DNA of 64,000 nt from an uncultured delta proteobacterium (GCA_963848135.1 CAWKCK010000007.1:1-64000), one strand, 5' to 3'. Shown: positions 1,730 through 16,009, counted from the first letter of the stretch. The notes: generated by a model from the sequence alone, not told the origin. Numbers and translations: made by a program.

Positions 1730-2613
1730 ATGATCCGCCATAGGTTCTTGATTTTTCTAGAGATCCACTGTTTCATTTTTTGGTTTTAGGTGCGGGGCTT
1801 TTTATGGTGTACTCGGTGGTTAACGGCCCTGCCAGCGTGCCAGTAGATCGAATCATCATCGACGAGAATCAGGCGTTGCGGCTCTCAGGACAGTTTCAAC
1901 GCACTTGGATGCGCCCGCCGACCCGGCAGGAACTGCAAGGACTGGCCGAAGACTTCGTGAAGGAGGAAATCCTTTACCGTGAGGCGAAGGCACTGAAGCT
2001 CGATCAGGATGATGTTGTTATTCGCCGCCGGTTGCGCCAGAAGATGGAATTTCTAAACGAAGACCTCACCGAACCTAAGGCACCGACAAATGACGATCTT
2101 CAGGCATTTCTTGATGCCAACGAAGATAGGTTTCGTCCGCTTGATCGCTTCAGTTTTCAACAAGTCTACCTGAATCCAAAAAAAACCACAGGTGACGTGA
2201 AGCGAACTGCCAACGAACTGATCATCCGTCTAAACAGCAATCCTGCACTTTCCGCTAATCCCAGATTGATTGGCGATGTCACTCTGCTTCCGACCCAACT
2301 TGATGCGGCCACGGAACCGGAGGTTGCCAATACTTTCGGGAAAGGGTTCGCCAAGCAAATCAAAAATGCACCCTCCGGGCGGTGGTCCGGACCCTATGAA
2401 TCTGGCTATGGGCTTCACCTCGTCCGCTTAATCGAACGCGAAACAGACCGTCCGCCTACAATGGCAGAGATACGTCCAGTGCTTGAGCGCGAATGGTATA
2501 GCGAGCGCAGAATAGAGGCCAAAGATCGATTGTACCAGGCGCTTCGTGCCCATTACGACGTCGACATCCGGCTGCCGGACGATACAACCGGTAAAACGCT
2601 CGCGGTGCGTTAA
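1730..2613 (+). CDS. PpiC-type peptidyl-prolyl isomerase family protein, likely frameshift near the start
   Basis: Motifs EEILYREA, IRRRLRQKMEFL and WSGPYESGYGLHLV. ATG 1730 with GAGG joins the ORF (RDPLFHFLVLGA) if one T is added to the T5 run at 1752-1756. Confidence 0.85.
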
Positions 2614-2615
2614 CA

Positions 2616-3641
2616 ATGAAATTCTACTCTTATTTTGCCTTAATCATTGCACTCGCCTTGTGTCATATCGGCATCGCTCCGGCACACGAGGTGCGGCCGG
2701 CTTACCTCCAACTAAAACAGGTGGATGAGCTGACTTATGACCTGCTCTGGAAAGTTCCGGCCAAGGGTGATCGCCGATTGGGACTGTATGTCCGTCTTCC
2801 CAAAAACTGTCACAGCAGTGATGCCACCTCGAAGTTTTCAAATGGCGCCTATGTTGAGCGCCGGCAGGTGACCTGCGAGGGCGGGCTTAGTGACGGCACA
2901 ATAGCCATTGATGGCCTCGAGGCAACACGCACCGACGTACTGGCCCGCGTAGAACACAACAATGGTCACACCCTTACAGTCCGCCTGACGCCTTCACAAC
3001 CTGAGTTCAGGGTTTTGGGCGCTCCCGGCTCCGCTGCCGTGGTGCGAACCTATTTCAAGTTGGGTGTCGAACACATCCTGCTTGGTTTCGACCACCTGCT
3101 GTTTGTACTGGCCCTGCTGTTCCTGGTGGAGGGTTGGCGGCGTCTGGTGGGAACCATCACCGCATTTACTGTTGCCCACAGCCTGACTCTGGCAGCGGCG
3201 ACCTTCGGCTGGGTGCAAGTGCCCCAGGCACCGGTGGAAGCGGTAATCGCCCTCAGTATCATGTTTGTAGCCGTCGAAATCTTGCACCGACAGCGGGGAC
3301 AACCGGGAATAGCGACTCGCAAACCGTGGGTCGTGGCCTTTGTTTTCGGGTTGCTGCACGGTCTGGGGTTTGCCGGTGCATTGCGGGAAATAGGGCTGCC
3401 GGACACCGCCATTCCCCTATCCCTGGCATCTTTCAACGTGGGTGTAGAGGCCGGCCAACTGCTTTTTGTTGCCATAGTTTTCATGCTTTTCTGGCTACTC
3501 ACTCAACTGATTTCCAGTCGTGCCGTTACTTACGACCGCTCGTCCCGGTCCGTTGCCGCCTTAATGCGTCCGGCATCTTACGTCATTGGCACACTCGCTG
3601 GTTTTTGGTTTATCGAGCGAACTTACGCGTTCTTTGTTTGA
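2616..3641 (+). CDS. HupE/UreJ family protein
   Basis: Signal peptide then AHEVRP. Motifs LGVEHILLGFDHLLF, TAFTVAHSLTL and FGLLHGLGFA. Confidence 0.9.
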   Translation: MKFYSYFALIIALALCHIGIAPAHEVRPAYLQLKQVDELTYDLLWKVPAKGDRRLGLYVRLPKNCHSSDATSKFSNGAYVERRQVTCEGGLSDGTIAIDGLEATRTDVLARVEHNNGHTLTVRLTPSQPEFRVLGAPGSAAVVRTYFKLGVEHILLGFDHLLFVLALLFLVEGWRRLVGTITAFTVAHSLTLAAATFGWVQVPQAPVEAVIALSIMFVAVEILHRQRGQPGIATRKPWVVAFVFGLLHGLGFAGALREIGLPDTAIPLSLASFNVGVEAGQLLFVAIVFMLFWLLTQLISSRAVTYDRSSRSVAALMRPASYVIGTLAGFWFIERTYAFFV

Positions 3642-3653
3642 TGAATGATCTCT

Positions 3654-3737
3654 TACGGAATCACGATGCCACCGGAGGTGCCTATGATAACCAAGGAACG
3701 AGCTCATACGTCACCGATCAGGTATATGTCGGGATAA
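3654..3737 (+). pseudogene. 3' relic of a second DUF3604 gene
   Basis: Reads YGITMPPEVPMITKERAHTSPIRYMSG*, which aligns to the neighbouring gene's C-terminus FKLSLPKEIPLKTQERAYTSPIWYTPKG*. Confidence 0.75.
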
Positions 3738-3765
3738 TCGATGAAAAGCCTTAAGGGAGGGCGTC

Positions 3766-5820
3766 ATGTTGAACAGTAAAAAACCGAAACAATCCGCTCT
3801 TGGTGTCACCAATGATAAAGCCGTTTCGCCTGGCCACTGAGGCAAACTCCAGGTTGAAGCCGGTCCATTACGGGCAGTCAGATGGCACGACCCCCTGTTG
3901 TGCTGCCTGATCGCCGTCCTTGTAAACGCGCTTCTCTTAGGTCCTGTCGTGGCCCAGGACACGGCCGGAACGAGCCCGGAGGTCTTCAAGGGGCGACCCT
4001 ACTCGCCTTACGCTGACCAGGCCTATCCGACGAACGTCTATTTTGGAGACACCCATGTCCATACCGGGCTGTCGGCCGACGCCGGGGGCTCCGGCACGCG
4101 GTTGATGCCACGCGAAGCCTATCGTTTCGCTCGTGGCGAGCAGGTGATCTCCAATACCGGCCAGCCGGTGAAGCTTTCCCGGCCCTATGACTTCTTCATG
4201 ATCACCGATCACTCCGACGCGATGGGCGCAATCACCGACATCATTGACGGCGCGCCGAATATCATGGCCGATCCAGATGGGCGCAAGTTCCACGAGGACT
4301 TCAACGCCGGCGGTGATACCGCTGCGCAGGCCATGTTTCGCCTGATAAACCAGTTCGCGCAGGGCAAGATTTCAGCTGAGCTGAACTACCAGCCCGGCAA
4401 TCCGGCTTACAGGCGCGTGTGGGACGAAATCATCCGCGCGGCTGAGGAATACAACGACCCGGGCCGTTTCACGACATTTATTGCTTTCGAATGGACATCA
4501 CTAGTGGCAGGCAACAACCTGCACCGCAACGTGATCTTCCGCGACGGCGCCGAGCGTGCCGGGCAGGTGGTTCCGTACACGACGACACCACCGATCGGTT
4601 CGCGCAACCCCCGCGACCTCTGGTCGTGGCTGGAGAACTACGAGAGGGTCACCGGCGGTGACGTTACAGCGATCCCACACAACGGTAACTTGTCTAACGG
4701 CATGATGTTCGCTCTGCAGGATGACTTCGCGGATGGAGCACCTTACGATCTGGCCTATGCGGAGAATCGTCAGAAATGGGAGCGCCTCTACGAGGTAACC
4801 CAATACAAGGGCGACGGTGAGGCGCACCCGATGCTCTCGCCCGAGGACGAGTTTGCCGACTTCGAAACCTGGGACTTCGGCAATCTGGACGTCTCGCAGG
4901 CGAAGACCCCGGACATGCTCCCGGGTGAATACGCCCGCTCCGGCCTTTTGCGTGGGCTCCAGTTAGAGGCATCCTTGGGTGTCAACCCGTTCAAGTTCGG
5001 GCTCGAGGGGGGCACCGACACCCACACCGGGCTCAGCACGATCGACGAAGACAACTTCTTCGGCAAATTCACTACCTACGAGCCTGGTCCGGAACGCGCA
5101 GCACACGCCGGTAAGAGCAATCCTGAGCTCAAAATTAAAGGGCCCGGCGGCGGCGATTACAGTGCGGGGGGGACGACTGCGGTATGGGCCTCAGAGAACA
5201 CGCGCGGGACGATCTTCGATGCCATGGAGCGGCGCGAGACGTACGCCACCACCGGTCCGCGCATGCGGGTCCGCTTCTTTGGCGGTTTCGATTTTACCGT
5301 CGACGATGCGAAGCGACGTGACTTAGCACTTATTGGCTATACCAAGGGCGTACCGATGGGGAGTGACCTCGCCAAGGCGCCTAAAGGAAAAGCGCCAAGC
5401 TTCCTGGTGTATGCGCTGCGTGATCCGATGGGCGCCAACCTCGATCGCATCCAAATCATTAAGGGCTGGCTGGATGCGAAGGGAAATCCGCAAGAGAAAC
5501 TCTACGACGTTGCTGTTTCAGACGGGAGGGAGATCGGCGCCGATGGCCGCTGCAAGATCCCGGTAGGCGATACAGTCGATCTGTCGATCCCGAGCTGGAC
5601 CAATACAATCGGTGCCTCGGAACTCGGCACAGTTTGGACCGACCCGGACTTTGATCCGTCTATGCGAGCATTTTATTACGCCAGAGTCATCGAAATTCCG
5701 ACGCCACGCTGGACCGCCTATGACCGGGTGAAGTTCAAGTTGAGCCTTCCAAAAGAGATTCCGCTAAAGACACAAGAGCGCGCGTACACGTCTCCAATAT
5801 GGTACACGCCGAAGGGATAA
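3766..5820 (+). CDS. DUF3604 domain protein (PHP-like secreted metallohydrolase), in-frame TGA at 3838-3840
   Basis: Motifs GDTHVHT, TDHSD, EWTS, HRNVIFR, HNGN and QERAYTSPIWY. Strong RBS AAGGGAGG before ATG 3766, in frame with ORF 3898-5820. Confidence 0.9.
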
Positions 5821-6165: not shown

Positions 6166-6576
6166 ATGCTACGATTTTTAAAAACCACAGTGCTTGGCGG
6201 TATCTTGTTCTTAATTTCCATATTCATCTTTGTCGAAATTATCGGTAAGGTAAAATAAATAGCGAACAAACTCGCCATTCCGATAGCCGGACTGCTGGGC
6301 GTCGATAAGATCGCTGGAATCGCAGTTGCAGAACTTCTGGCCATAGGAATTCTTGTGCTGGTCTGCTTCATTGCCGGCCTGGTTACGAAAACACCGCGTG
6401 CAAGGAATTTGTGCAGTCTTTGGAGAACAATGTTCTATAAAAAATACCCACCTATGAGGTGCTGAAGGGCAATATTCAAAGTCTGCTGAGTTTCGAGGAT
6501 GCTAAGGAAATGAGTCCCGTCATGGTAAGGTTCGACGATTTATGGCAGATCGCCTTTGAGATCGAACGTACCGAGG
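6166..6576 (+). pseudogene. DUF502 family membrane protein, degraded
   Basis: MLRFLKTTVLGGILFL...VK*IANKLA...LVCFIAGL, then a frameshift, then LENNVL*KIPTYEVLK...VRFDDLWQIAFEIER. Two stops, one frameshift, truncated. Confidence 0.7.
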
Positions 6577-6684
6577 AATGTCATCCGCAGCCGCGCCCTG
6601 GAAACATTTAGCTATCGCAAGATGGTGGTTGACTATCTAAAGTCAGACGCAAAGTGGTACAGCGCCCCCAAACCCATGCTCTTA
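6577..6684 (+). pseudogene. internal fragment of an amidinotransferase
   Basis: NVIRSRALETFSYRKMVVDYLKSDAKWYSAPKPMLL resembles the RSRxxE...YR...AxW..APKP segment of glycine/inosamine amidinotransferases. Confidence 0.6.
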
Positions 6685-6825
6685 GCCCGAATATTTCATG
6701 AAATCATTTCACAGAGCGGCCAAAAAGAACCCATATCGGGGCATTGATCAAACTCATGATCCGTTTAATCGGGCACACTTTGTCCCTCGCCAAGATCTAA
6801 TGAAAGAGCTGAAAAGATTTCACCC

Positions 6826-6933
6826 TTCAGGTCAACCGGAGGCTTTCATGGCCGGCGTTATTCGAGGTTCGCGGTAGACTGACTACAGCATCGCCTCGAA
6901 ATGCCTTGGCCATAAAAGCCTCCAATTGATGAA
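6826..6933. repeat. long imperfect palindrome (REP/MITE-like)
   Basis: GGAGGCTTT-ATGGCC pairs with GGCCAT-AAAGCCTCC, TTCGAGG pairs with CCTCGAA, apical GTAG-N5-CTAC. Confidence 0.7.
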
Positions 6934-7071
6934 ATTTCCGGGTTAGACTCGCTGTTTGAGGTTGATCTGGACAAGCCCGCGCCACGTGACGATAAACCCG
7001 CTTTTGATGCAGCAAACGTCCTGCGTCTTGGATAGGATTTGATCTATCTGGTCAGCGGCACGGGTAACGAA

Positions 7072-10000
7072 ATGGGGGGGGCAATGGTTGCAACAATTTT
7101 GGGCGATGCTTATCGGGTTCACTTTCTCAGAAATGTCTACTATGGCAGCAATTATTTTAACAACCGTCTTCGTGGTCTTCTTTGTAGTGACGTTTGTGGC
7201 CTGGAGGCGGTACCTTTGGGTGGCTGAAAAGGCGCCGCACGGGCAGACGGACACCTGCCCCTACAGCTTGACGGATGTCTTTAGCGACCGCCACCTCGTG
7301 AACGTGCCGCATCAGGAAGGAATCCGGTGGCTCACAGAGGTCTTCAGCCGCTCCGCCGAGAAGTACCCGGATTTCACGGCCTTACAGATTCCTCATACCG
7401 GAGAATCCCTCACCTTCGCTGAACTCGACGCTCGGGCCGAAAACGTGGCCGCGGCCCTTGTCTCCCTTCCTCACAGGACCGGACCAGGTCGTGGCCGTGG
7501 CCATGTCGCAGGACAACTGGCAAATCGTGGCCGCTCACCTCGGTATTCTCAAGGCTGGCGGTACCATGATGTTCCTCGACACCGCTTTGCCAGACGCCCT
7601 TATCACCCACATGCTCAAGGATGCACAGCCGGTGGTCATTCTCACGCGGGGCCAAGACAAGTTTCGCGACCTGCCGACGCTCGATATCCTGACGTTGCCG
7701 GAGAGGATGCCCCGAAGCAAGCCGCCGCCTTGGCTGGACGACCCCACGCAGCGCCTTGCGACCATCTTCTACACGAGCGGAACTACCGGAATGCCCAAGG
7801 GCGTGGAGTGCCCGCACGCAGGCTACGTGAACCTGGCCCTGAGCTACGCCGATTATTTTGATCTCATTCCGGGTATGGACGCGACCTCGCTTACTTCGTC
7901 GCTGGGATACGACGGCAGCATCTCCGAGATGTACAGCGCCTGGGTATCAGGTTGCGCTGTGGTCATGCTGACCAAGGAGCAGATACGGTCCGGGCCAGAC
8001 CTCGTCCCCGTTCTTCGTGAAGCCGAGGTCACGGTGCTCTTCTGTCCGCCAGTTCTGCTTACCACCCTCACATCAACCCCCGAGCTTGATCTCCCCTACC
8101 CGCTGTGCCGCTATGTCGTGCCGGCGGGCGAAGCCTTCCCCGCCACGCTCGTGGAGCCCTGGACGCGTGGCAGACGGCAGATCATAAACACCTACGGCCC
8201 TACAGAGGCGAGCACCGACACAAGCCGCCAGAGCTTGCGGCCGGGGGAGCCCATCACCATAGGCTCGCCCTTCGCCAACGTCACCTACGTTATCCTCGAG
8301 GTCGACCAACTCCGCCCGCTGCCCCACGGGGAGGTCGGCGAGCTTTGCATCGGTGGGGTACACGTGGCGCGGGGGTACCGCAATTTGGCGGAGCAAACCG
8401 CCCAGAAGTTCATCACGCACCCTCGGTTCGGCCGCCTCTTTCGCACCGGAGATAAATGTAAAATAGACATCCGGACGCAGCGCGTGCACTTCCTCGGCCG
8501 AGTCGACATGCAGCTCAAGGTGCGCGGGCACCGCGTCGAGATACAGCCCGTTGAGGACATCCTCCAGACGAAGTTCAGGGAGATCGAGGCCGCTGTGCTG
8601 GACTACCAGAACCAAGAACTGGTCGCCTTCGTCGCCGCCCCGTCAGTCTCCGAAGGCGATATCTCGGTTGTCGCTCCAGCACCGGCGGAGTGGGCTACCC
8701 GGGTCACGGCGACTCTGGCGAGACAACTTCCAGCGCCGTCAGTTCCGACAAGGATTTTCCTGGTGGAAAAATTTGTCATGAAGCCGATGTCCGGAAAGAT
8801 CGACCGGGGGTGCTTGCCCAACCTATCTCATCTGCTGACAAACGCCGAGCCGGAAGCGGAGGACACCTGTAGTGGCTCACCGACCAGCATGCAGGTGACA
8901 GAGGCGGGGAAAGCCAAACCGCCCGACACCGATGCGGGCGTGGAACCGGGCTGTGAGGAAGTGCTGGCGATTTGCAGGGCCGTGTTCGAGACCCCATTGG
9001 GATGGGACGATTTATTCGCTGACAATGGTGGGCACTCGATCGTCATCGCACGACTGGCGCAGCGCTTGCAAGCCGCAGGATGGGTGGTGCCGGTCCGGGC
9101 GCTACTCACTGACTGCAACACCCCACGAAAGGTGGCCATTCGCCCGCGGCAGCTCCAGCAGGCCTCCGGGACCCCTACGGCTGCCGCGAAATCTCACCGA
9201 AACTCCACAGAGCGCGATGAGACAGCGGCAAGGGCGCTCTCTGTGGGTTATTTTACCATCCTGCAGGTCCTGTTCCTGTTGTTGCTGTACGCCCCCGTTT
9301 TAATAGGCTTCCTGGGGTTCATCTCCTTCGCTGAAATCGGAGAGTTCTTCATAACCGCGTCCTTCTGGGAGTTCATTAGCGTCGGTTTCTTGATGTACTT
9401 GTTTGCCTTTGTCCTGCCCTTCGCCAACCTGCTCTGGGTCATGGTGATCAAGCGCTTCATGGGTGGTAACATTTACAGGAACAATGTGACGCCGGGTGTT
9501 TACCCCAAGTGGAGCAGAATGCATTTGCGAACCTGGTGTATCGGGCGGCTGCAAGCCACAGTACTCCGCCCCCTGCGTGCATTGTTTCGCAGCGCGCCGT
9601 TCAAGGCATACGTCTTGCGGCGCCTCGGGGCGACCGTGGGTGACAACCTTCAGTGCGCGCATGACGTGGAGTTCTCCGGACCGCTGGACTTACTCTCCAT
9701 CGAGAACGATGTCACCATCCAGACCGGAGCCCACATACACATGTCGAGGTGGGTGGGGTCAGAATTGCATATCGGCCCCGTTCGCCTCGAGAGCGGCTGC
9801 AAGATCGGAATGCGGGCAGCCGTCGCCGACCATGTGACGGTAGGCCGCGGCACCTGGATCACTCCGCTTACTCCCATCCTCAGTGACATCGGTTCCGGGG
9901 AGATGTGGGAAGGTGCCCCGGCGCGATTCAGTGGCCGCTACACGGAATTGAAGCGTACGGCAAATGGTTGCCAGTACGCGTACCCGTTCTGGTTCATGGA

Positions 10001-11471
10001 GACACTCAACATCCTGATGCAAATCTTCTTGGACTTCTGGCTGCTCGTCGTTCCAACCGCCGCAGTCACCTGGTTCGCCGCCACCTTCATACCCGGCGGA
10101 GAAACAGAACTCGCCAGTGAATACTTCATGATAACGCCCCTGCATGAAATTATCTGGCACATGGGCCTCTACGCGTTCATCACTACCTGGGTAACCGTCG
10201 TCCTGATTTCATTGCTGGGCTGCCTATTTCTTCGCTGCACCACTGCCTCTCCAGGGCTGTATCCCTCGCGCGGGATCAAGGCCGCTCTTCTCATGTACAG
10301 GCAGAAGAAGATGAACCAGATCCAGCGCCTTTGGACCTGGACCATTACCGGGCAATACCTGCGCGCACTCGCTGGCGTGAGTTACACGCGCGTGGGTGCC
10401 TCGGAGTGCGACGTCATGTTCGACCTCGTCCCGGAACTTACCAGCGCCGACTCCCAGGTGTTCTGGTCCCATGGTGGCTTCACGAACATGCTCGATTACG
10501 GCGCCGAGCATGTAAAGCTTCGCCAGCTCGACATGCCCGCGAATTTCTTCAGCGGTAATAATTGCGTCGCAGAATCCGGACACTTCCCGACCAACTTCCT
10601 GCTGGGAGTGTCCACGCCGGGTAATGATATACAGTTCCGGCGCCAGATGCAGTCGCGACTCGGCGAACCCATCACTGTGGCTGGAAACCCGCCAGTTAAA
10701 TTTGCGAGTGCGAACTTCGAGGCAGAGAATGAATCCCATCGCTTGCCGAGCTTCCCCCTCTTCCTGGCGCGCATCTTACTGAATGACATTTTCAACAGCG
10801 GCATTCTGCACATCGCCAATGTAGTTGTCTATGTAGTTTGGTACGCCATCCTGCTGCGGTTGGGCACACACCCGGTCGTCAGCGCGTTCATTGCTTTGAT
10901 TCTCGCAGAGGTCGTCCTGGTTGTGTCCTGCGCCGTAACCAAGAAGCTCCTTGTCGGCAGTAAATGGGGATCTGCTCACTCAACACCGTTCTGGTCCTGG
11001 CGGCACTTCACCTACTTCTTCGCGCAGGACTGCTTCATCGCCTGGTGCAGGATTCCTCTGGTAATTCTATCCGGGACGGTGCTGTCGAATATTATCCTGC
11101 GGTGGATGGGGTGTCGGATCGGCAAACGGACCATTCTAACCTGGCCTATGCAGGCCTCCGACTGGAACGCGGTAAGCTTCGGCAACGATTGTATTATCGG
11201 CGGCATCCTGCAGTTTCACACCCTCGAGAATATGATGCTGAAGGTGAAGTTAACCGACATCCAGGACGGCAGCACCGTCAATTTCGGCGCAACGGTCATG
11301 GGCGGTGCGGTCATCGAGCCTGAGACAACGCTCCTGCCGTTAAGCATGGTCCTGAAGGAGATGCACCTGCCCACAGGGATTTACTGGGGTAGCCCCACGG
11401 AGCCTTGTAAGCAGAGTTCAACACTCATCTCCCCTTGTCACTCAGCCACAACCAAGCAGCGGGCATTCTAA
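7072..11471 (+). CDS. Pls/PosA-type membrane-bound single-module NRPS (TM-A-T-terminal TM domain), frameshifted
   Basis: A-domain motifs LTFAELD, YTSGTTGMPKG, YDGS, NTYGPTE, GELCIGG.VARGY, FRTGD and SGKIDR. T-domain GGHS. C-terminal TM blocks with PGVYPKWS, LGATVG, WEGAPA and WGSP. ORFs 7088-7861 and 7458-11471 join by removing one C at 7455-7457. Start uncertain. Confidence 0.88.
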
Positions 11472-11530
11472 GATGTCTGGAGAGGCACCTAACGACACAG
11501 AGAGCCGGCCATCGAGGCTCACGATACCAG

Positions 11531-12262
11531 ATGAGTAGAGACGATAGCGACCGAATCAAGGAGCTCTTCGCCGCCAACTCACGCGAGTTGACACCGGCAT
11601 CCGCGCTTCATGCGGCTTGCGTGTTGTACGCGCCGGTTTCCCACGATCCCGAGGTGTCGAATCGATGCGCGTCAGTCCTGTCGGATACCGAGCTGCAGAG
11701 GGCGAACCGATTTGTAACCGAATACGACAAGACCCAGTTCAAACAGCGTCGTGCATTTCGTCGCTTCTGCGGCGCCACCGCGTTCGGATCGTCGCGGCCC
11801 TTATCGCGGATCGTTTTCGAGAAGACGGAACACGGGCGGCCCTACCTTTCCGAATTACCGGATTTATGGTTTAGTTTTTCCTCCTGCCGGTTCGGTTTTC
11901 TCGGGGCGTGGTCGTCGACACATGGGATCGGTGTCGATCTCGAAGATGAAACGAGGAATCTGGAGGCTGTAGAACTCGCTCATCGGTTTTTTTCGGGAGT
12001 CGAGGCAAATACTATTGAAAGGGTAAGCGGCTTTGAGCGCCTGCGGACTTTCCTCCAATTCTGGAGCCTCAAAGAAGCGGCGTTGAAATCCATCGGGGAG
12101 GGATTGCCCTTTGGCCTCGACGCTTTCGAATTCGAGTTGGACCCAAATCTGCGTGTCGTTCGTGCGCCCCCTGACCACGGCGGACCGGAGCAATTTGATG
12201 CCCACGTGATCGACGGAACTGACAATAGTTGCGCTGCTCTTGTCACCCGAAGCTTGACCTGA
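11531..12262 (+). CDS. Sfp-type 4'-phosphopantetheinyl transferase
   Basis: Motifs HGRPY, IGVDLE and FWSLKEAALKSIGEGL. Directly follows the NRPS. Confidence 0.92.
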   Translation: MSRDDSDRIKELFAANSRELTPASALHAACVLYAPVSHDPEVSNRCASVLSDTELQRANRFVTEYDKTQFKQRRAFRRFCGATAFGSSRPLSRIVFEKTEHGRPYLSELPDLWFSFSSCRFGFLGAWSSTHGIGVDLEDETRNLEAVELAHRFFSGVEANTIERVSGFERLRTFLQFWSLKEAALKSIGEGLPFGLDAFEFELDPNLRVVRAPPDHGGPEQFDAHVIDGTDNSCAALVTRSLT

Positions 12263-12375
12263 CAGCTACGGCATTGCCCCCTCTATGATTTACACGTCTA
12301 AATGACGCCTCAGAGATTTCAGCCCATGAACGTGCACGAAACGGCAAGATTTTATGAGCCGCCAATAGATCTTAC

Positions 12376-13227
12376 ATGAGCCCAGAGATGCACGACGCCA
12401 CGCGTTCGACGTGCACACCTCACGCCGTCGACAACACTGACTGGCTGAAAACAGCCGCAATCATCTTGGTCGCGGTTGACCACATCGGCTATTTCTTTAT
12501 AGAAGACGCCCAATGGTGGAGCGTTTTCGGGCGCCTTGCGGCTCCGGCGTTCTTCTTCCTTCTGGGCTTCGCGCAGACCCGGACCGTCCCGCTCAACTGG
12601 ATCTGGCTTGGTGCCATTCTGACTCTGCTCGACAGCTGGAACGCCGGCTGGACCTGGGTGGCACCGAACATTCTTTTGAGCTTCGCGCTTATCCGCATTG
12701 CACGCCCCTATGTGCGAATCCTTATGCAAAATCACGGCTGGGCAGCTTTCACCCTCCTCGCCTCCGCACTTTTAGCGGTACTGCCGATAGCGGCGAAGAT
12801 TGTCGATTACGGCGCGGAGGGATGGCTGTGGGCCCTGTTCGGCTTATACCAACGCATGTATATCGACGGCAGATTAGCTACCGAAGTGGACGGCACAACC
12901 CAAAGCATAGCATCGCCCACGCATGCGATGACAGAAAACGTGGGCCTAATGCGTGTGCTGGCCTGCTTTCTAGCCGCGGTCGTCTACGTCTGGCAGGAAC
13001 AAAAGGAATTCTCGTTTTCTCAGATCCATTTCGCCGCGCTCATTCTCGGTGTCGGCGTTTTGTCCCTTAGCCTCTGTCTGTTCCTGCGCGGTCCGAGCCG
13101 AATTCAGCCGCCAGAATCCATAGCCATCGCCCTGCGTTTTATCGGCCGGCGCACTCTGGAAATTTACGTCATTCAGCTTGCCGGCTCCGAACTCATTATA
13201 AAATTGGTGCCCGATCTCGCCCCCTGA
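12376..13227 (+). CDS. TraX-family membrane protein (putative acyltransferase)
   Basis: DWLKTAAIILVAVDHIG, FGRLAAPAFF, NIL and DYG motifs. Multiple TM helices. Confidence 0.7.
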   Translation: MSPEMHDATRSTCTPHAVDNTDWLKTAAIILVAVDHIGYFFIEDAQWWSVFGRLAAPAFFFLLGFAQTRTVPLNWIWLGAILTLLDSWNAGWTWVAPNILLSFALIRIARPYVRILMQNHGWAAFTLLASALLAVLPIAAKIVDYGAEGWLWALFGLYQRMYIDGRLATEVDGTTQSIASPTHAMTENVGLMRVLACFLAAVVYVWQEQKEFSFSQIHFAALILGVGVLSLSLCLFLRGPSRIQPPESIAIALRFIGRRTLEIYVIQLAGSELIIKLVPDLAP

Positions 13228-13312
13228 CCACGGTGGACAGAAGCAATTTGACGCTCACGTGATAGAGGGAACCAAAGGTTGCGCAACTCTCGTCACCCGA
13301 AGCTTGGCCTGA
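13218..13312 (+). repeat. diverged second copy of the PPTase 3' end (12165-12262)
   Basis: Both copies begin CGCCCCCTGACCACGG and end GTCACCCGAAGCTTG(A/G)CCTGA. Confidence 0.9.
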
Positions 13313-13338
13313 TGTCGCGGTAAAAATAGCCGTTTGCA

Positions 13339-13379
13339 GAAAAAGCCTTCCCAGGAATCTCAGTTGGAAAGGCTTTTTC
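13339..13379. terminator. bidirectional intrinsic terminator
   Basis: GAAAAAGCCTTCCCA...TGGAAAGGCTTTTTC between convergent genes. Confidence 0.75.
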
Positions 13380-13444
13380 AGATAGAGGCCCTAAAATGGT
13401 GGCTCAGGATCTACGCAAACGGCTTGACCTGATGGACTCCGCCG

Positions 13445-13834
13445 CTATTTAACCTTTATTGATTCCCACAAGGCGCTGTCTGGACAAGCAATCTTTTCCT
13501 GATTCCGCTTGTCTACTTCCGCAGCCGGAGAACCCGCGTAGTTATCCCAGAACTTACCCCACTCCTCGAAAGAAGGCGCGACGACAACAAACCAGACGTC
13601 AGCTTCACCGATGGCATTGACCGCAACCGGGAAATACACATAGGCCTCTAACCGCTCACCGCCCGCCATTTTCTTTGCAGCCTTGAGCCACTCCCCAGCC
13701 ATGGCTGTCACTTCCTCCTCAGATGCGTCATCGTCTATCTCGCATTTCCACATCTGCGTGGCTTCAGCCGCGTAGGCCGGAGCGGCTACAATTATCAGCA
13801 TGAAAACAAGCATCAACCGCACGAAGGTGTTCAT
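13445..13834 (-). CDS. secreted hypothetical protein
   Basis: RBS AGAGGAGGA, signal peptide ending APAYA, two Cys. Confidence 0.8.
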   Translation of the reverse strand: MNTFVRLMLVFMLIIVAAPAYAAEATQMWKCEIDDDASEEEVTAMAGEWLKAAKKMAGGERLEAYVYFPVAVNAIGEADVWFVVVAPSFEEWGKFWDNYAGSPAAEVDKRNQEKIACPDSALWESIKVK

Positions 13835-14104
13835 CACGTATCCTCCTCTTTTTAGTTTTGCCAATAATATTAAGCAAGAACGAAAGACTCTTGCCAACGA
13901 AAGTAATACCAATCGATTGGGCACCTTTCTGTAAATCCGGTGTATCCCCCCTATTGCCGGTTGATCAAAAGACGACAGGGCGTCGTTCAGAGGTCTGCCA
14001 GCCTTCTGAGATTTCCATCAGCACGGCAGATAATAGGCGCAAACAGGTGGCTGCGATTCTCGGGGTGGTGGGATTCCTACCTATAGGTTGAGCCCTATCT
14101 CTTA

Positions 14105-14311
14105 CCTAATTTGAGCGATTGTCGAGGTTGCTGCAGATACAAGGAAGATGTCGTTCCGCTATAGTCATCTATGCGGAACGGCATATGACGCCGTAGATGC
14201 GGCAAGGTCGGCAATCCCAAGGGTTTCAAATTTTAAAATCAAACTTTGATAGAAATCCTTATAAATAAAGCAGTTCCCCCTCCATTTAAAATTTGAAACG
14301 CTCACTTTAGG
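14105..14311 (+). mobile_element. MITE family A, copy 2 (207 bp)
   Basis: TIRs CCTAATTTGAGCGATT / AAACGCTCACTTTAGG. TSD TCTTA at 14100-14104 and 14312-14316. Confidence 0.9.
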
Positions 14312-14625
14312 TCTTATACAGCGCTTACCGAAACCGCTTATTGACACAGTGTTGAGCAATATAAGGTTTTGCTTCAAAATTACAAGATTATTGCGGGACG
14401 ATGGATAAAACACTGACAATGGATCTGTATTAATTTCACGGATGACAATAAATGGAATAGTCTGGAGAGATTTGATCTTCCAATTGCATCTGAAAAATCA
14501 AATCCCGCTATTAAACCAACGATATTGATTGACTGCAACCGTCACCACATTGTTGACTTTCCGCGCCAAAATTTATATTGCTGAATGCAAGACTGCGTCA
14601 TAATTGACGAAAGAAGGTGAAAATA

Positions 14626-15621
14626 ATGCCCGCCACAAAATACGCACGCATTTCATTGATATTATGGAATATTATAAGCTCCTACGGCATTGATCCCGAG
14701 CCTTTGTTTTGGGAAGCGGGTATAAATCCCGATCTTATGAAGCAATCCGGAAAACGGTACAGGGTGCGGAAGGTTAAATTACTTTGGCAAAAGGCCGCCA
14801 AGGCTATCAAAGATCCCTGCTTCGGCCTCAAAGCGGCTGAACTATGGCACCCATCGAATTTCAGCGCCCTCGGCTATGCGATGCTGGCGAGCGCCACCAT
14901 ACGGACCGCGCTGGAAAGAATGGAACGCTATTATCACGTTATTTCTGACGAAAAGGTTTTAGAATTGAAAGATGCGGAAGAGGGCCTGAGGTTGACTTTG
15001 GTCTTCAGCGATATGATGCACGATATTCCGGAAAGAAATGATGCCTCACTGGCCGTGATACTGAATATTTGCCGGGTGAATTATTTAGAAGATTTGGCAC
15101 CGGTTTCGGTGACCTTGGCTCACCCGAAACCAACCTGTTCTTCCAAATATTTCGAGTATTTCAAGTGTCCGGTAACCTTTAACGCGCCGGTCAACGCCCT
15201 CACGTTACCATTTGAAACGGTCGATAAGGCACTGCCAGGATCCAATCCCCAACTTGCTGAACTCAATGATCAGTTGATGATCTCATATCTTGAAAAACTC
15301 AATCCGGATGATATTACTCAAAAAGTTAAAGCCGTGGTCATTAATCAACTCCCTTCGGGCAATGTTACGGATGAAAGCGTCGCAAAGGCCGTATACATGA
15401 GTAATCGCACATTACAAAGAAAACTTGAAAATGCCGGTACGACCTTTAAAATACTCCTGAATGAAACACGGCAGGATTTAGCGAAGCAGTATTTGAGAGA
15501 TCACGACACCAGTATGACCGAGATCGCCTTTTTGCTCGGCTTTTCAGAAAACAGCACCTTTTCGAGGGCATTCAAACGGTGGACGGGGGTATCTCCGAGC
15601 CAATATCGAAAGGCATCATGA
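14626..15621 (+). CDS. AraC family transcriptional regulator (OruR-like)
   Basis: MSNRTLQRKL and EIAFLLGFSENSTFSRAFKRWTGVSP. N-terminal LGYAMLAS ligand domain. Confidence 0.93.
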   Translation: MPATKYARISLILWNIISSYGIDPEPLFWEAGINPDLMKQSGKRYRVRKVKLLWQKAAKAIKDPCFGLKAAELWHPSNFSALGYAMLASATIRTALERMERYYHVISDEKVLELKDAEEGLRLTLVFSDMMHDIPERNDASLAVILNICRVNYLEDLAPVSVTLAHPKPTCSSKYFEYFKCPVTFNAPVNALTLPFETVDKALPGSNPQLAELNDQLMISYLEKLNPDDITQKVKAVVINQLPSGNVTDESVAKAVYMSNRTLQRKLENAGTTFKILLNETRQDLAKQYLRDHDTSMTEIAFLLGFSENSTFSRAFKRWTGVSPSQYRKAS

Positions 15622-15622
15622 A

Positions 15623-15673
15623 AATAATCATCGCTCACCCACCATTATAGCTGGTGGGTTAGCGATGATTATT
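15623..15673. terminator. hairpin after the AraC gene
   Basis: AATAATCATCGCTCACCCACCA...TGGTGGGTTAGCGATGATTATT. Confidence 0.65.
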
Positions 15674-15820
15674 ATGATTATTCGTATACGATTATTGGCC
15701 GTACTCCACCGTCTCCAATTCGGAAGAAAAATGTGATTTTCTATCATGTTTACTTCCGAATAGGGCGCAAGAGCAGATTATACCCATCTGCAAGAGCAGT
15801 ATTGCTTCTCAATGCCGAAT

Positions 15821-16009
15821 TCAGGCGATCTCGAGTTCCGGTCGAATCTCATGCAGACGCTCTCTGGCCAAATCACGCACTTGTGGATCCGTGTCCTTTA
15901 CCATTACCTGTTTCAGCAATTCCACATTGATTTCTTCCCTGACAGCCTTCTTGCGAACTTCGGGATCCGAACGACTGATTTTTGGCAGAAAAAAATCCTG
16001 GAACTTCAT
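15821..16009 (-). CDS. small HEAT-repeat-like protein
   Basis: SDPEVRKKAV and DTDPQVRDLA repeats, purine-rich RBS. Confidence 0.7.
   Translation of the reverse strand: MKFQDFFLPKISRSDPEVRKKAVREEINVELLKQVMVKDTDPQVRDLARERLHEIRPELEIA

Follow-up and report, generated by a model that had tools for sequence, protein, structure and literature searches.

A trimmed, probably inactivated copy of a synthetase cassette that has spread horizontally, from an uncultured delta proteobacterium

Cationic homopoly(amino acid)s such as polylysine serve as preservatives and carriers, and to our knowledge only a handful of natural ones are known. The closest described enzymes are Pls, the epsilon-poly-L-lysine synthetase of Streptomyces albulus, and PosA, the delta-poly-L-ornithine synthetase of Acinetobacter baumannii, both of which combine a single adenylation–thiolation (A-T) module, free of condensation (C) and thioesterase (TE) domains, with six membrane helices around three soluble domains. 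A gene of this type lies in a 64,000-nt stretch of DNA from an uncultured delta proteobacterium (GCA_963848135.1 CAWKCK010000007.1:1-64000), referred to here as the window, in which all coordinates are counted. The synthetase gene is divided between two open reading frames (ORFs) and is followed by genes for a 4′-phosphopantetheinyl transferase (PPTase) and a TraX-like membrane protein. The reading favoured here, with a probability of roughly 0.55, is that this locus is a trimmed, probably disabled copy of a biosynthetic cassette that has spread among bacteria, and that the complete cassette likely makes an undescribed, positively charged polymer of amino acids.

The relatives of the synthetase place the locus in this context. 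A word-indexed search with the C-terminal region returned 835 proteins at E <= 0.001 among 8000 scored candidates and, among the matches listed, the best 120 of the 835 are 77–100% identical. Scanning of species-representative genomes yielded 173 confirmed stretches, and 74 distinct loci among them were examined; their synthetases are 64–92% identical and, going by the titles of the records, are distributed over Desulfobacteraceae, Alpha- and Gammaproteobacteria, Verrucomicrobiae, Acidobacteriota, Gemmatimonadales and others. Neighbouring ORFs were clustered and the clusters named, and gene content was then counted at the 37 loci that have 6 kb or more of sequence on either side (the full-flank loci). 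The full gene set comprises those for SbnA, SbnB, an amidinotransferase and the synthetase, followed by PPTase and TraX genes whose order differs between loci; an S41 peptidase is included in some versions, and in others a DUF418/YeiB gene stands in for TraX, together with a small protein. Locus L075 of strain NaphS2 is an example that has all six of SbnA, SbnB, amidinotransferase, synthetase, PPTase and TraX. At the full-flank loci, the amidinotransferase is the most regular partner (35/37), followed by TraX (31/37), SbnB (29/37), SbnA (28/37), the S41 peptidase (26/37), PPTase (21/37) and DUF418 (2/37). Either TraX or DUF418 is present at 33 of the 37, neither being found at L039, L050, L053 and L085. 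When all loci with at least 1.2 kb upstream are considered, the amidinotransferase is present in 54 of 58. The cassette proteins of the relatives are assigned above the family cut-offs for SbnA (TIGR03945, 377.9 bits versus 349.95) and SbnB (TIGR03944, 391.4 bits versus 326.9), and an intact family amidinotransferase matches StrB1 (1bwd) at E 9.9e-107.

Signs of exchange between distant lineages and of conservation accompany this distribution. The synonymous distance (dS) between copies from Verrucomicrobiae and Blastocatellia is 0.325, which is low for different phyla, and the ratio of nonsynonymous to synonymous rates (dN/dS) is 0.17–0.29 across family pairs. A midpoint-rooted tree separates two clades. 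The first, mostly marine or from sediment, always has a small protein called here c5, with TraX or DUF418 and no peptidase; the second, from soil, has TraX and the peptidase. The window copy belongs to the first clade, adjoining locus L018. The window locus is a trimmed version of this larger, horizontally spread cassette.

Two known pathways help to define what is particular about this gene set. PosA is reported as a single-gene operon (PMC10522769), unlike the present family, whose constant partners are the amidinotransferase and the TraX-like protein. The poly(L-diaminopropionic acid) pathway of Streptomyces albulus PD-1 (PMC4668381) resembles the complete cassette in that a Pls-type synthetase is accompanied by a dedicated diaminopropionate supply, the term SbnA occurring once in the available text of that report; the same text has no mention of an amidinotransferase and its abstract no TraX-like partner, unlike the family described here, with its amidinotransferase at nearly every full-flank locus. 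Full-text literature searches found no paper linking an amidinotransferase or TraX to a Pls-type synthetase.

What has been trimmed from the window is first of all the amidinotransferase gene. Two fragments on the + strand are left of it, one at 6574..6705 (residues 119–162 of an intact 350-residue family member; 48.5 bits, 64% identity) and one at 6943..7155 (residues 155–226; 96.2 bits, 73% identity), the latter with an in-frame TAG at 7033-7035. They are the only amidinotransferase matches in the whole genome, the completeness of which is 98.65%. The last third of the gene is deleted, and the window contains no full-length amidinotransferase of the StrB1/AGAT type with its C-terminal third. 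Inside the remnant lies a 265-bp dispersed repeat element (6681..6945) with 43 matches in the genome, many near full length and of 81–98% identity; contigs of relatives (sequencing runs X1 and X15) skip positions 6681-6943. The window amidinotransferase is thus a truncated pseudogene split by the repeat element. Its frame ends in ...VYYGS and overlaps the synthetase start, with the letters ATGGCAGC shared at the junction (7142-7155), and the roughly 200 bases before the ATG at 7142 are amidinotransferase remnant, outside the synthetase gene. The same junction, with truncation at the same residue, 226, is found in genome G010, the only one among 40 related genomes with an ortholog of the synthetase, and points to a single ancient deletion through microhomology, in which roughly the final third of the amidinotransferase gene was lost along with the spacer. 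Precursor genes were also sought in the genome of the window itself, where the best scores did not reach the cut-offs for SbnA (246.1 bits versus 349.95) or SbnB (66.1 bits versus 326.9).

The second apparent defect concerns the synthetase gene. Its two ORFs, 7088..7861 (+, 257 aa) and 7458..11471 (+, 1337 aa), overlap in different frames. Because the synthetases of the family begin with M/L/V-AAIIL, the start is most likely the ATG at 7142. Positions 7142..7459 (+) would then encode the N-terminal transmembrane (TM) helix and the start of the adenylation domain (A1 region), and the remainder, with motifs A2–A10, the carrier domain (~8958-9137) and three units of two TM helices and a beta-helix, occupies 7461..11471 (+). 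The G010 ortholog, at 89% identity, is encoded by one uninterrupted ORF of 1483 aa, relative to which the window has one surplus base at about 7461 (frameshift site 7460..7462, +; gap at column 422 of the DNA alignment), between motifs A1 and A2, where GTCTCCC stands against GGTCCC in G010. As assembled, the window copy is predicted to be unable to make the product. Programmed frameshifting was considered and set aside, 45 full-length family genes from the 74 loci all being in one frame. The C-terminal tail of the window synthetase also differs, including a 4-base difference at 11422; it was not counted as damage, since the tail is variable across the family.

The domain content of the synthetase agrees with the initial annotation, made from this sequence alone, in being a single A-T module without C or TE domains. 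The AMP-binding profile of Pfam is divided between the two ORFs (the upstream ORF matching profile positions 1-43 at 24.8 bits, the downstream one 44-383 at 175.4 bits); PP-binding reaches 25.8 bits and Hexapep 21.2 bits, the last under its cut-off of 27, and neither a C nor a TE domain was found in Pfam and NCBIfam scans. The carrier serine is conserved in 46/46 family sequences. According to hydropathy, the intact ortholog has an N-terminal TM segment at residues 12-30 and three TM blocks at 710-785, 968-1046 and 1227-1278, so that the layout of Pls and PosA, with six helices and three soluble domains, is found both by hydropathy and in the structure model. The additional helix before the adenylation domain, already proposed in the initial annotation, is kept in 14/14 family members compared; we know of no such N-terminal helix in Pls. 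Two alphaproteobacterial loci, L035 and L037, have two tandem synthetase copies, then TraX (the copies at L037 being located at 6998-11392 and 11562-15848 of that locus).

How close the enzyme is to Pls is a matter of degree. The Pls/PosA terminal-domain family TIGR02353 matches the window synthetase at 9390-11393 (+) over nearly its entire profile (38-693 of 695; 137.6 bits, E 4.6e-40), and a second score is 141.3 bits, both under the cut-off of 423.1. The proposed Pls-like nature stands as far as homology goes, but not as membership in the family defined by that cut-off. When compared with a library of representatives at 50% identity, the family stands apart as a separate group with one sister at 35% identity, the next full-length Pls-like proteins being only 24–29% identical; the grouping with a characterized synthetase that would have counted against the initial annotation is not seen. 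TIGR02353 gives 168.5 bits for the family representative and 135.4 bits for the sister. Among ten of the full-length proteins at 24–29% identity, seven score 348–396 bits, P0250 scores 233.0 bits and P0246 170.8 bits; for P0212, TIGR02353 is not among the 25 families shown. The adenylation domain scores 124 bits against the Pls A domain (7wew) and 222 bits against TycA.

The terminal domains were examined by modelling and profile comparison. In an AlphaFold model of the last 747 residues (mean predicted local distance difference test, pLDDT, 84.5; predicted template modelling score, pTM, 0.87), a unit of two long helices and a beta-helix is repeated three times. The three soluble domains (C1, C2 and C3) are all beta-helices in the model, and C1 and C3 are related according to hhalign (probability 94–95%, E about 1e-8); no relation of C2 to C1 or C3 was detected with hhalign profiles, and BLASTP among the three gave nothing significant. 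The repeated character of these domains, as first annotated, is thus supported at the level of fold for all three and at the level of sequence profile for C1 and C3, but not for C2. Foldseek returned 63 PDB matches at E <= 0.001 for the C-terminal model; among the matches listed, all but one are hexapeptide-repeat acyl-CoA acyltransferases, including two designed cages built from them, and the best is maltose O-acetyltransferase (4isx_B; E 3.8e-6, TMt 0.64). The three domains share the left-handed beta-helix fold of maltose and galactoside O-acetyltransferases; unlike in these enzymes, a single polypeptide contains three copies, and each copy is attached to two membrane helices. Hexapeptide-repeat acyltransferases are trimers that bind the pantetheine arm at their subunit interfaces, and three tandem beta-helix domains acting on a carrier-bound thioester would fit an acyltransferase of this trimeric type, with a presumed pseudo-trimer packing. 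In the aligned C-terminal region, His676 (in C3), Gln674 and Glu679 show no variation over 56 rows, among which are distant Pls-like proteins.

The specificity code of the adenylation domain was read by anchoring on the core motifs, with the code positions taken to lie at their usual places relative to these motifs, and not by a computed alignment with GrsA. By this route, the earlier manual reading DGSFVATTDK is recovered: it is the code of 38/46 family sequences, the others having DGPFVATSDK (7/46) or DGSFIATTDK (1/46). Asp is retained at position 1. Position 3 is Ser in 39/46 and Pro in 7/46, and Glu is found there in none (0/46); the only acidic pocket residue of the family code is at position 9. 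According to PMC10522769, conservation of Asp at position 1 and of Glu at position 3 extends to every cationic homopolymer synthetase; the family departs from Pls and PosA at the latter position.

Downstream of the synthetase, ORFs on the + strand extend over 11435..12262 and 12376..13227, and the PPTase and TraX-like assignments given to them initially are confirmed by profile scores. The first ORF opens with TTG at 11435; ATG 11531 corresponds to the start of the ortholog, and the resulting Sfp-type PPTase (11531..12262) is 81% identical to the G010 gene over 243 aa. It scores 54.5 bits with ACPS (PF01648, cut-off 25) and does not reach the HetI equivalog (63.3 bits versus 370). The TraX-like protein (12376..13227, 283 aa, intact) scores 34.8 bits with PF05857, over the Pfam cut-off of 25. 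The TraX of the F plasmid is a pilin N-acetylase. The window protein resembles it in passing PF05857, and is unlike it in falling below the F-type equivalog TIGR02755 (41.7 bits versus 149.35), in having no conjugation genes nearby and in the fusion of its homologs to a synthetase. These fusions, each a single ORF, occur at seven loci (L021, L038, L049, L057, L058, L074 and L076), and in the L049 protein AMP-binding, PP-binding, Hexapep and TraX are all detected by Pfam. Several of the seven look, from their contig names, like short-read assemblies, which would argue against an indel artefact. At L054, TraX is fused in one ORF to the S41 peptidase.

The immediate surroundings of traX in the window raise the question of whether it belongs to the pathway. 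It sits between two copies of the PPTase 3′ end, 95-98 bp long, one at 12165..12262 (+; repeat families D1 and D2) and a diverged one at 13218..13312 (+), 85-87% identical to the first; apart from the window, only L016 and L018 show such a duplicate. At G010 and L018, a DUF418 gene on the opposite strand is found between the same repeats. This single-gene slot resembles the outcome of cassettes being swapped through recombination at a gene end present in two copies. Such a slot would suit the view that the TraX-like gene is a passenger, a single-gene cassette recombined beside the PPTase gene and without a role in the pathway, which we consider very improbable. TraX is linked to the synthetase at 31 of the 37 full-flank loci in several phyla and in three positions (abutting the synthetase, after the PPTase, or with the S41 peptidase upstream of SbnA), its homologs at cassette loci are 57–79% identical to that of the window, and the seven in-frame synthetase fusions largely refute the passenger view. 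The linkage of traX in other genomes, on which the initial annotation had made its proposal depend, is borne out in general but not in G010, where the DUF418/YeiB gene stands instead. Across the 74 loci TraX and DUF418 are mutually exclusive (TraX 44, DUF418 8, both 0). Three of six DUF418 members, and one more in a separate scan, give weak matches to HGSNAT_cat, all below cut-off. It is on account of the mutual exclusion and of these weak hints, and of these only, that TraX and DUF418 are treated as equivalent.

Heparan-alpha-glucosaminide N-acetyltransferase (HGSNAT) and GWT1 are transmembrane acyl-CoA acyltransferases, and the model of the TraX-like protein (pLDDT 77) has its best structural matches in this group. 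Foldseek found no PDB match for the model at E <= 0.001. An exhaustive structure search over 48,161 chains placed 8jkv_A on top (Z 9.9, 231 aligned), followed by HGSNAT with acetyl-CoA (8tu9_B; Z 9.7, 216 aligned), GWT1 (8xik_A; Z 8.1, 219 aligned) and a fourth row at Z 7.5 with 113 aligned, caution being advised for helical proteins at Z below about 13. The best matches cover 216–231 of the 283 residues, in a Z range prone to chance for helical bundles, and the sequence identity with HGSNAT and GWT1 is only 10–14%. K25 and H36, in the first helix, are invariant in the TraX alignment, among other charged residues.

A further question is what the product is attached to. A free polymer may not be made at all; single aminoacyl groups would instead be transferred onto an envelope lipid, glycan or protein, with a logic as in D-alanylation or in the formation of lysyl-phosphatidylglycerol, and TraX would acylate the same acceptor. 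The membrane-embedded enzyme with its N-terminal anchor helix, the lack of the Glu reported at code position 3 for all cationic homopolymer synthetases (PMC10522769) and the nature of HGSNAT and GWT1, which modify membrane-associated or lumenal glycoconjugates, are all in its favour. We hold transfer to an envelope acceptor to be unlikely, as the S41 peptidase, which is found with TraX at 26 of the 37 full-flank loci and in one case is joined to it in a single ORF, suggests a product resembling a peptide, the homology to the Pls/PosA terminal domain extends over nearly the full profile, and no acceptor-synthesis genes recur among the clustered cassette neighbours.

Several observations weigh against the favoured reading of a trimmed and disabled locus with a cationic product, and most of them speak for a locus that still works. 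According to this alternative, an assembly error accounts for the frameshift, and a reduced unit of four genes, for the synthetase, PPTase, TraX-like protein and c5, loads an available amino acid such as L-arginine, independently of the amidinotransferase and SbnA/SbnB. In the lineage that has lost the amidinotransferase, the synthetase remains subject to purifying selection, with dN/dS at 0.2-0.27 (window–G010 0.272, window–L018 0.205, G010–L018 0.240). This observation carries the most weight, both against a dead local locus and against the amidinotransferase product as the amino acid that is loaded. In addition, the G010 and L018 synthetases are intact. The enzyme therefore seems to work without the amidinotransferase and SbnA/SbnB, and what it loads may be an ordinary amino acid rather than one made by the amidinotransferase; the specificity code is the same with or without precursor genes at the locus. 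SbnA/SbnB are themselves absent from about one quarter of the full-flank loci, and PPTase, TraX and c5 are intact in the window. As to the frameshift, public sequencing runs included none with more than 0.36 of the sampled words, and the contigs compared are accordingly those of relatives, not of the source sample. They conflict at 7460: an RNA-library contig from a 94%-identical relative (7256-7528, 16 differences) has one base fewer there and keeps the frame, but a contig of run X3 spans the position without the one-base difference. The frameshift, which the initial annotation had named as a finding that would speak against its proposal if real, is thus present in the assembly, and because of this conflict the odds that it is a real mutation are about even; it may be an assembly error. 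The TraX part of the argument has its own weak points, namely fold matches at Z values where helical bundles match by chance and a comparison of the TraX and DUF418 profiles that gave no similarity (probability 0.2%).

Against a working locus, the replacement of GGTCCC by GTCTCCC is not a simple homopolymer slip, the X3 contig lacks the correction, and the presence of an amidinotransferase adjoining the synthetase in 54 of 58 loci implies that the normal pathway needs it. Taking both sides together, a functional four-gene unit is a real possibility, although one that we judge somewhat less than probable, and the trimmed, probably disabled cassette is retained as the preferred reading.

For the complete cassette, the following mechanism can be envisaged. 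SbnA and SbnB would produce L-2,3-diaminopropionate, onto which the amidinotransferase would transfer the amidino group of arginine to give a guanidino amino acid. The adenylation domain, with the acidic residue of its code at position 9 rather than position 3, would activate this amino acid and load it onto the carrier primed by the PPTase. The three cytoplasmic beta-helix acyltransferase-like domains, anchored in the membrane by the six helices, would then move the aminoacyl group off the pantetheine thioester and onto the amine of a free monomer or of the growing chain, as in Pls, so that a cationic oligomer or polymer would result. Because guanidino side chains are poorly nucleophilic, growth would proceed via the alpha-amine and leave one free amine end. 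The TraX-like protein, with its putative HGSNAT/GWT1-like fold, would acylate a product amine on the far side of the membrane and may cap the growing end, capping being proposed because acylation of the free amine end would stop growth. In its most specific form, in which the complete cassette makes an undescribed oligo- or poly(2-amino-3-guanidinopropionate), or a like guanidino peptide, and TraX or DUF418 terminates the chain across the membrane and sets its length, this proposal is tentative, and we think it more doubtful than the general one.

The remaining features of the locus lie at its borders. The second PPTase 3′-end copy is followed by an inverted repeat (I1; 13339..13379, +) with 15-nt arms and an 11-nt loop, which may be a terminator; the terminator scan gave no entry for it. 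The promoter scan found a number of sites not above that in shuffles, and none upstream of the synthetase. The gene for c5 (159 aa) is located at 13445..13924 on the - strand; it stands beside the cassette in 13/13 members of the tree clade of the window. No Pfam family was found for c5, and its nearest Atlas clusters are unnamed; the nearest named ones are DUF1330, ABM and NIPSNAP at 0.80-0.81, to be taken as a lead only. Further upstream, same-strand genes at 1780-5820 encode a PPIC-type rotamase, a HupE/UreJ_2 membrane protein and a DUF3604 protein (798.8 bits), of which a homolog with 54% identity is also found near the cassette at L068. Downstream, at 14617-15621, is a gene for an AraC-family regulator with an arabinose-binding-type N-terminal domain; such a regulator accompanies the cassette at a single further locus (L053, 37% identity).

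The cassette to which the window locus is related is widespread in several phyla among the bacteria of soil and sediment, is strongly conserved and moves between phyla. It predicts a new monomer chemistry, based on guanidino side chains, as well as a tailoring partner of a new type; if the proposal of chain termination across the membrane is true, TraX would be the first HGSNAT-fold acyltransferase wired, and sometimes fused, to a nonribosomal synthetase. The window copy is in the course of being dismantled, and thereby offers a natural experiment to show which cassette components are able to do without the others.

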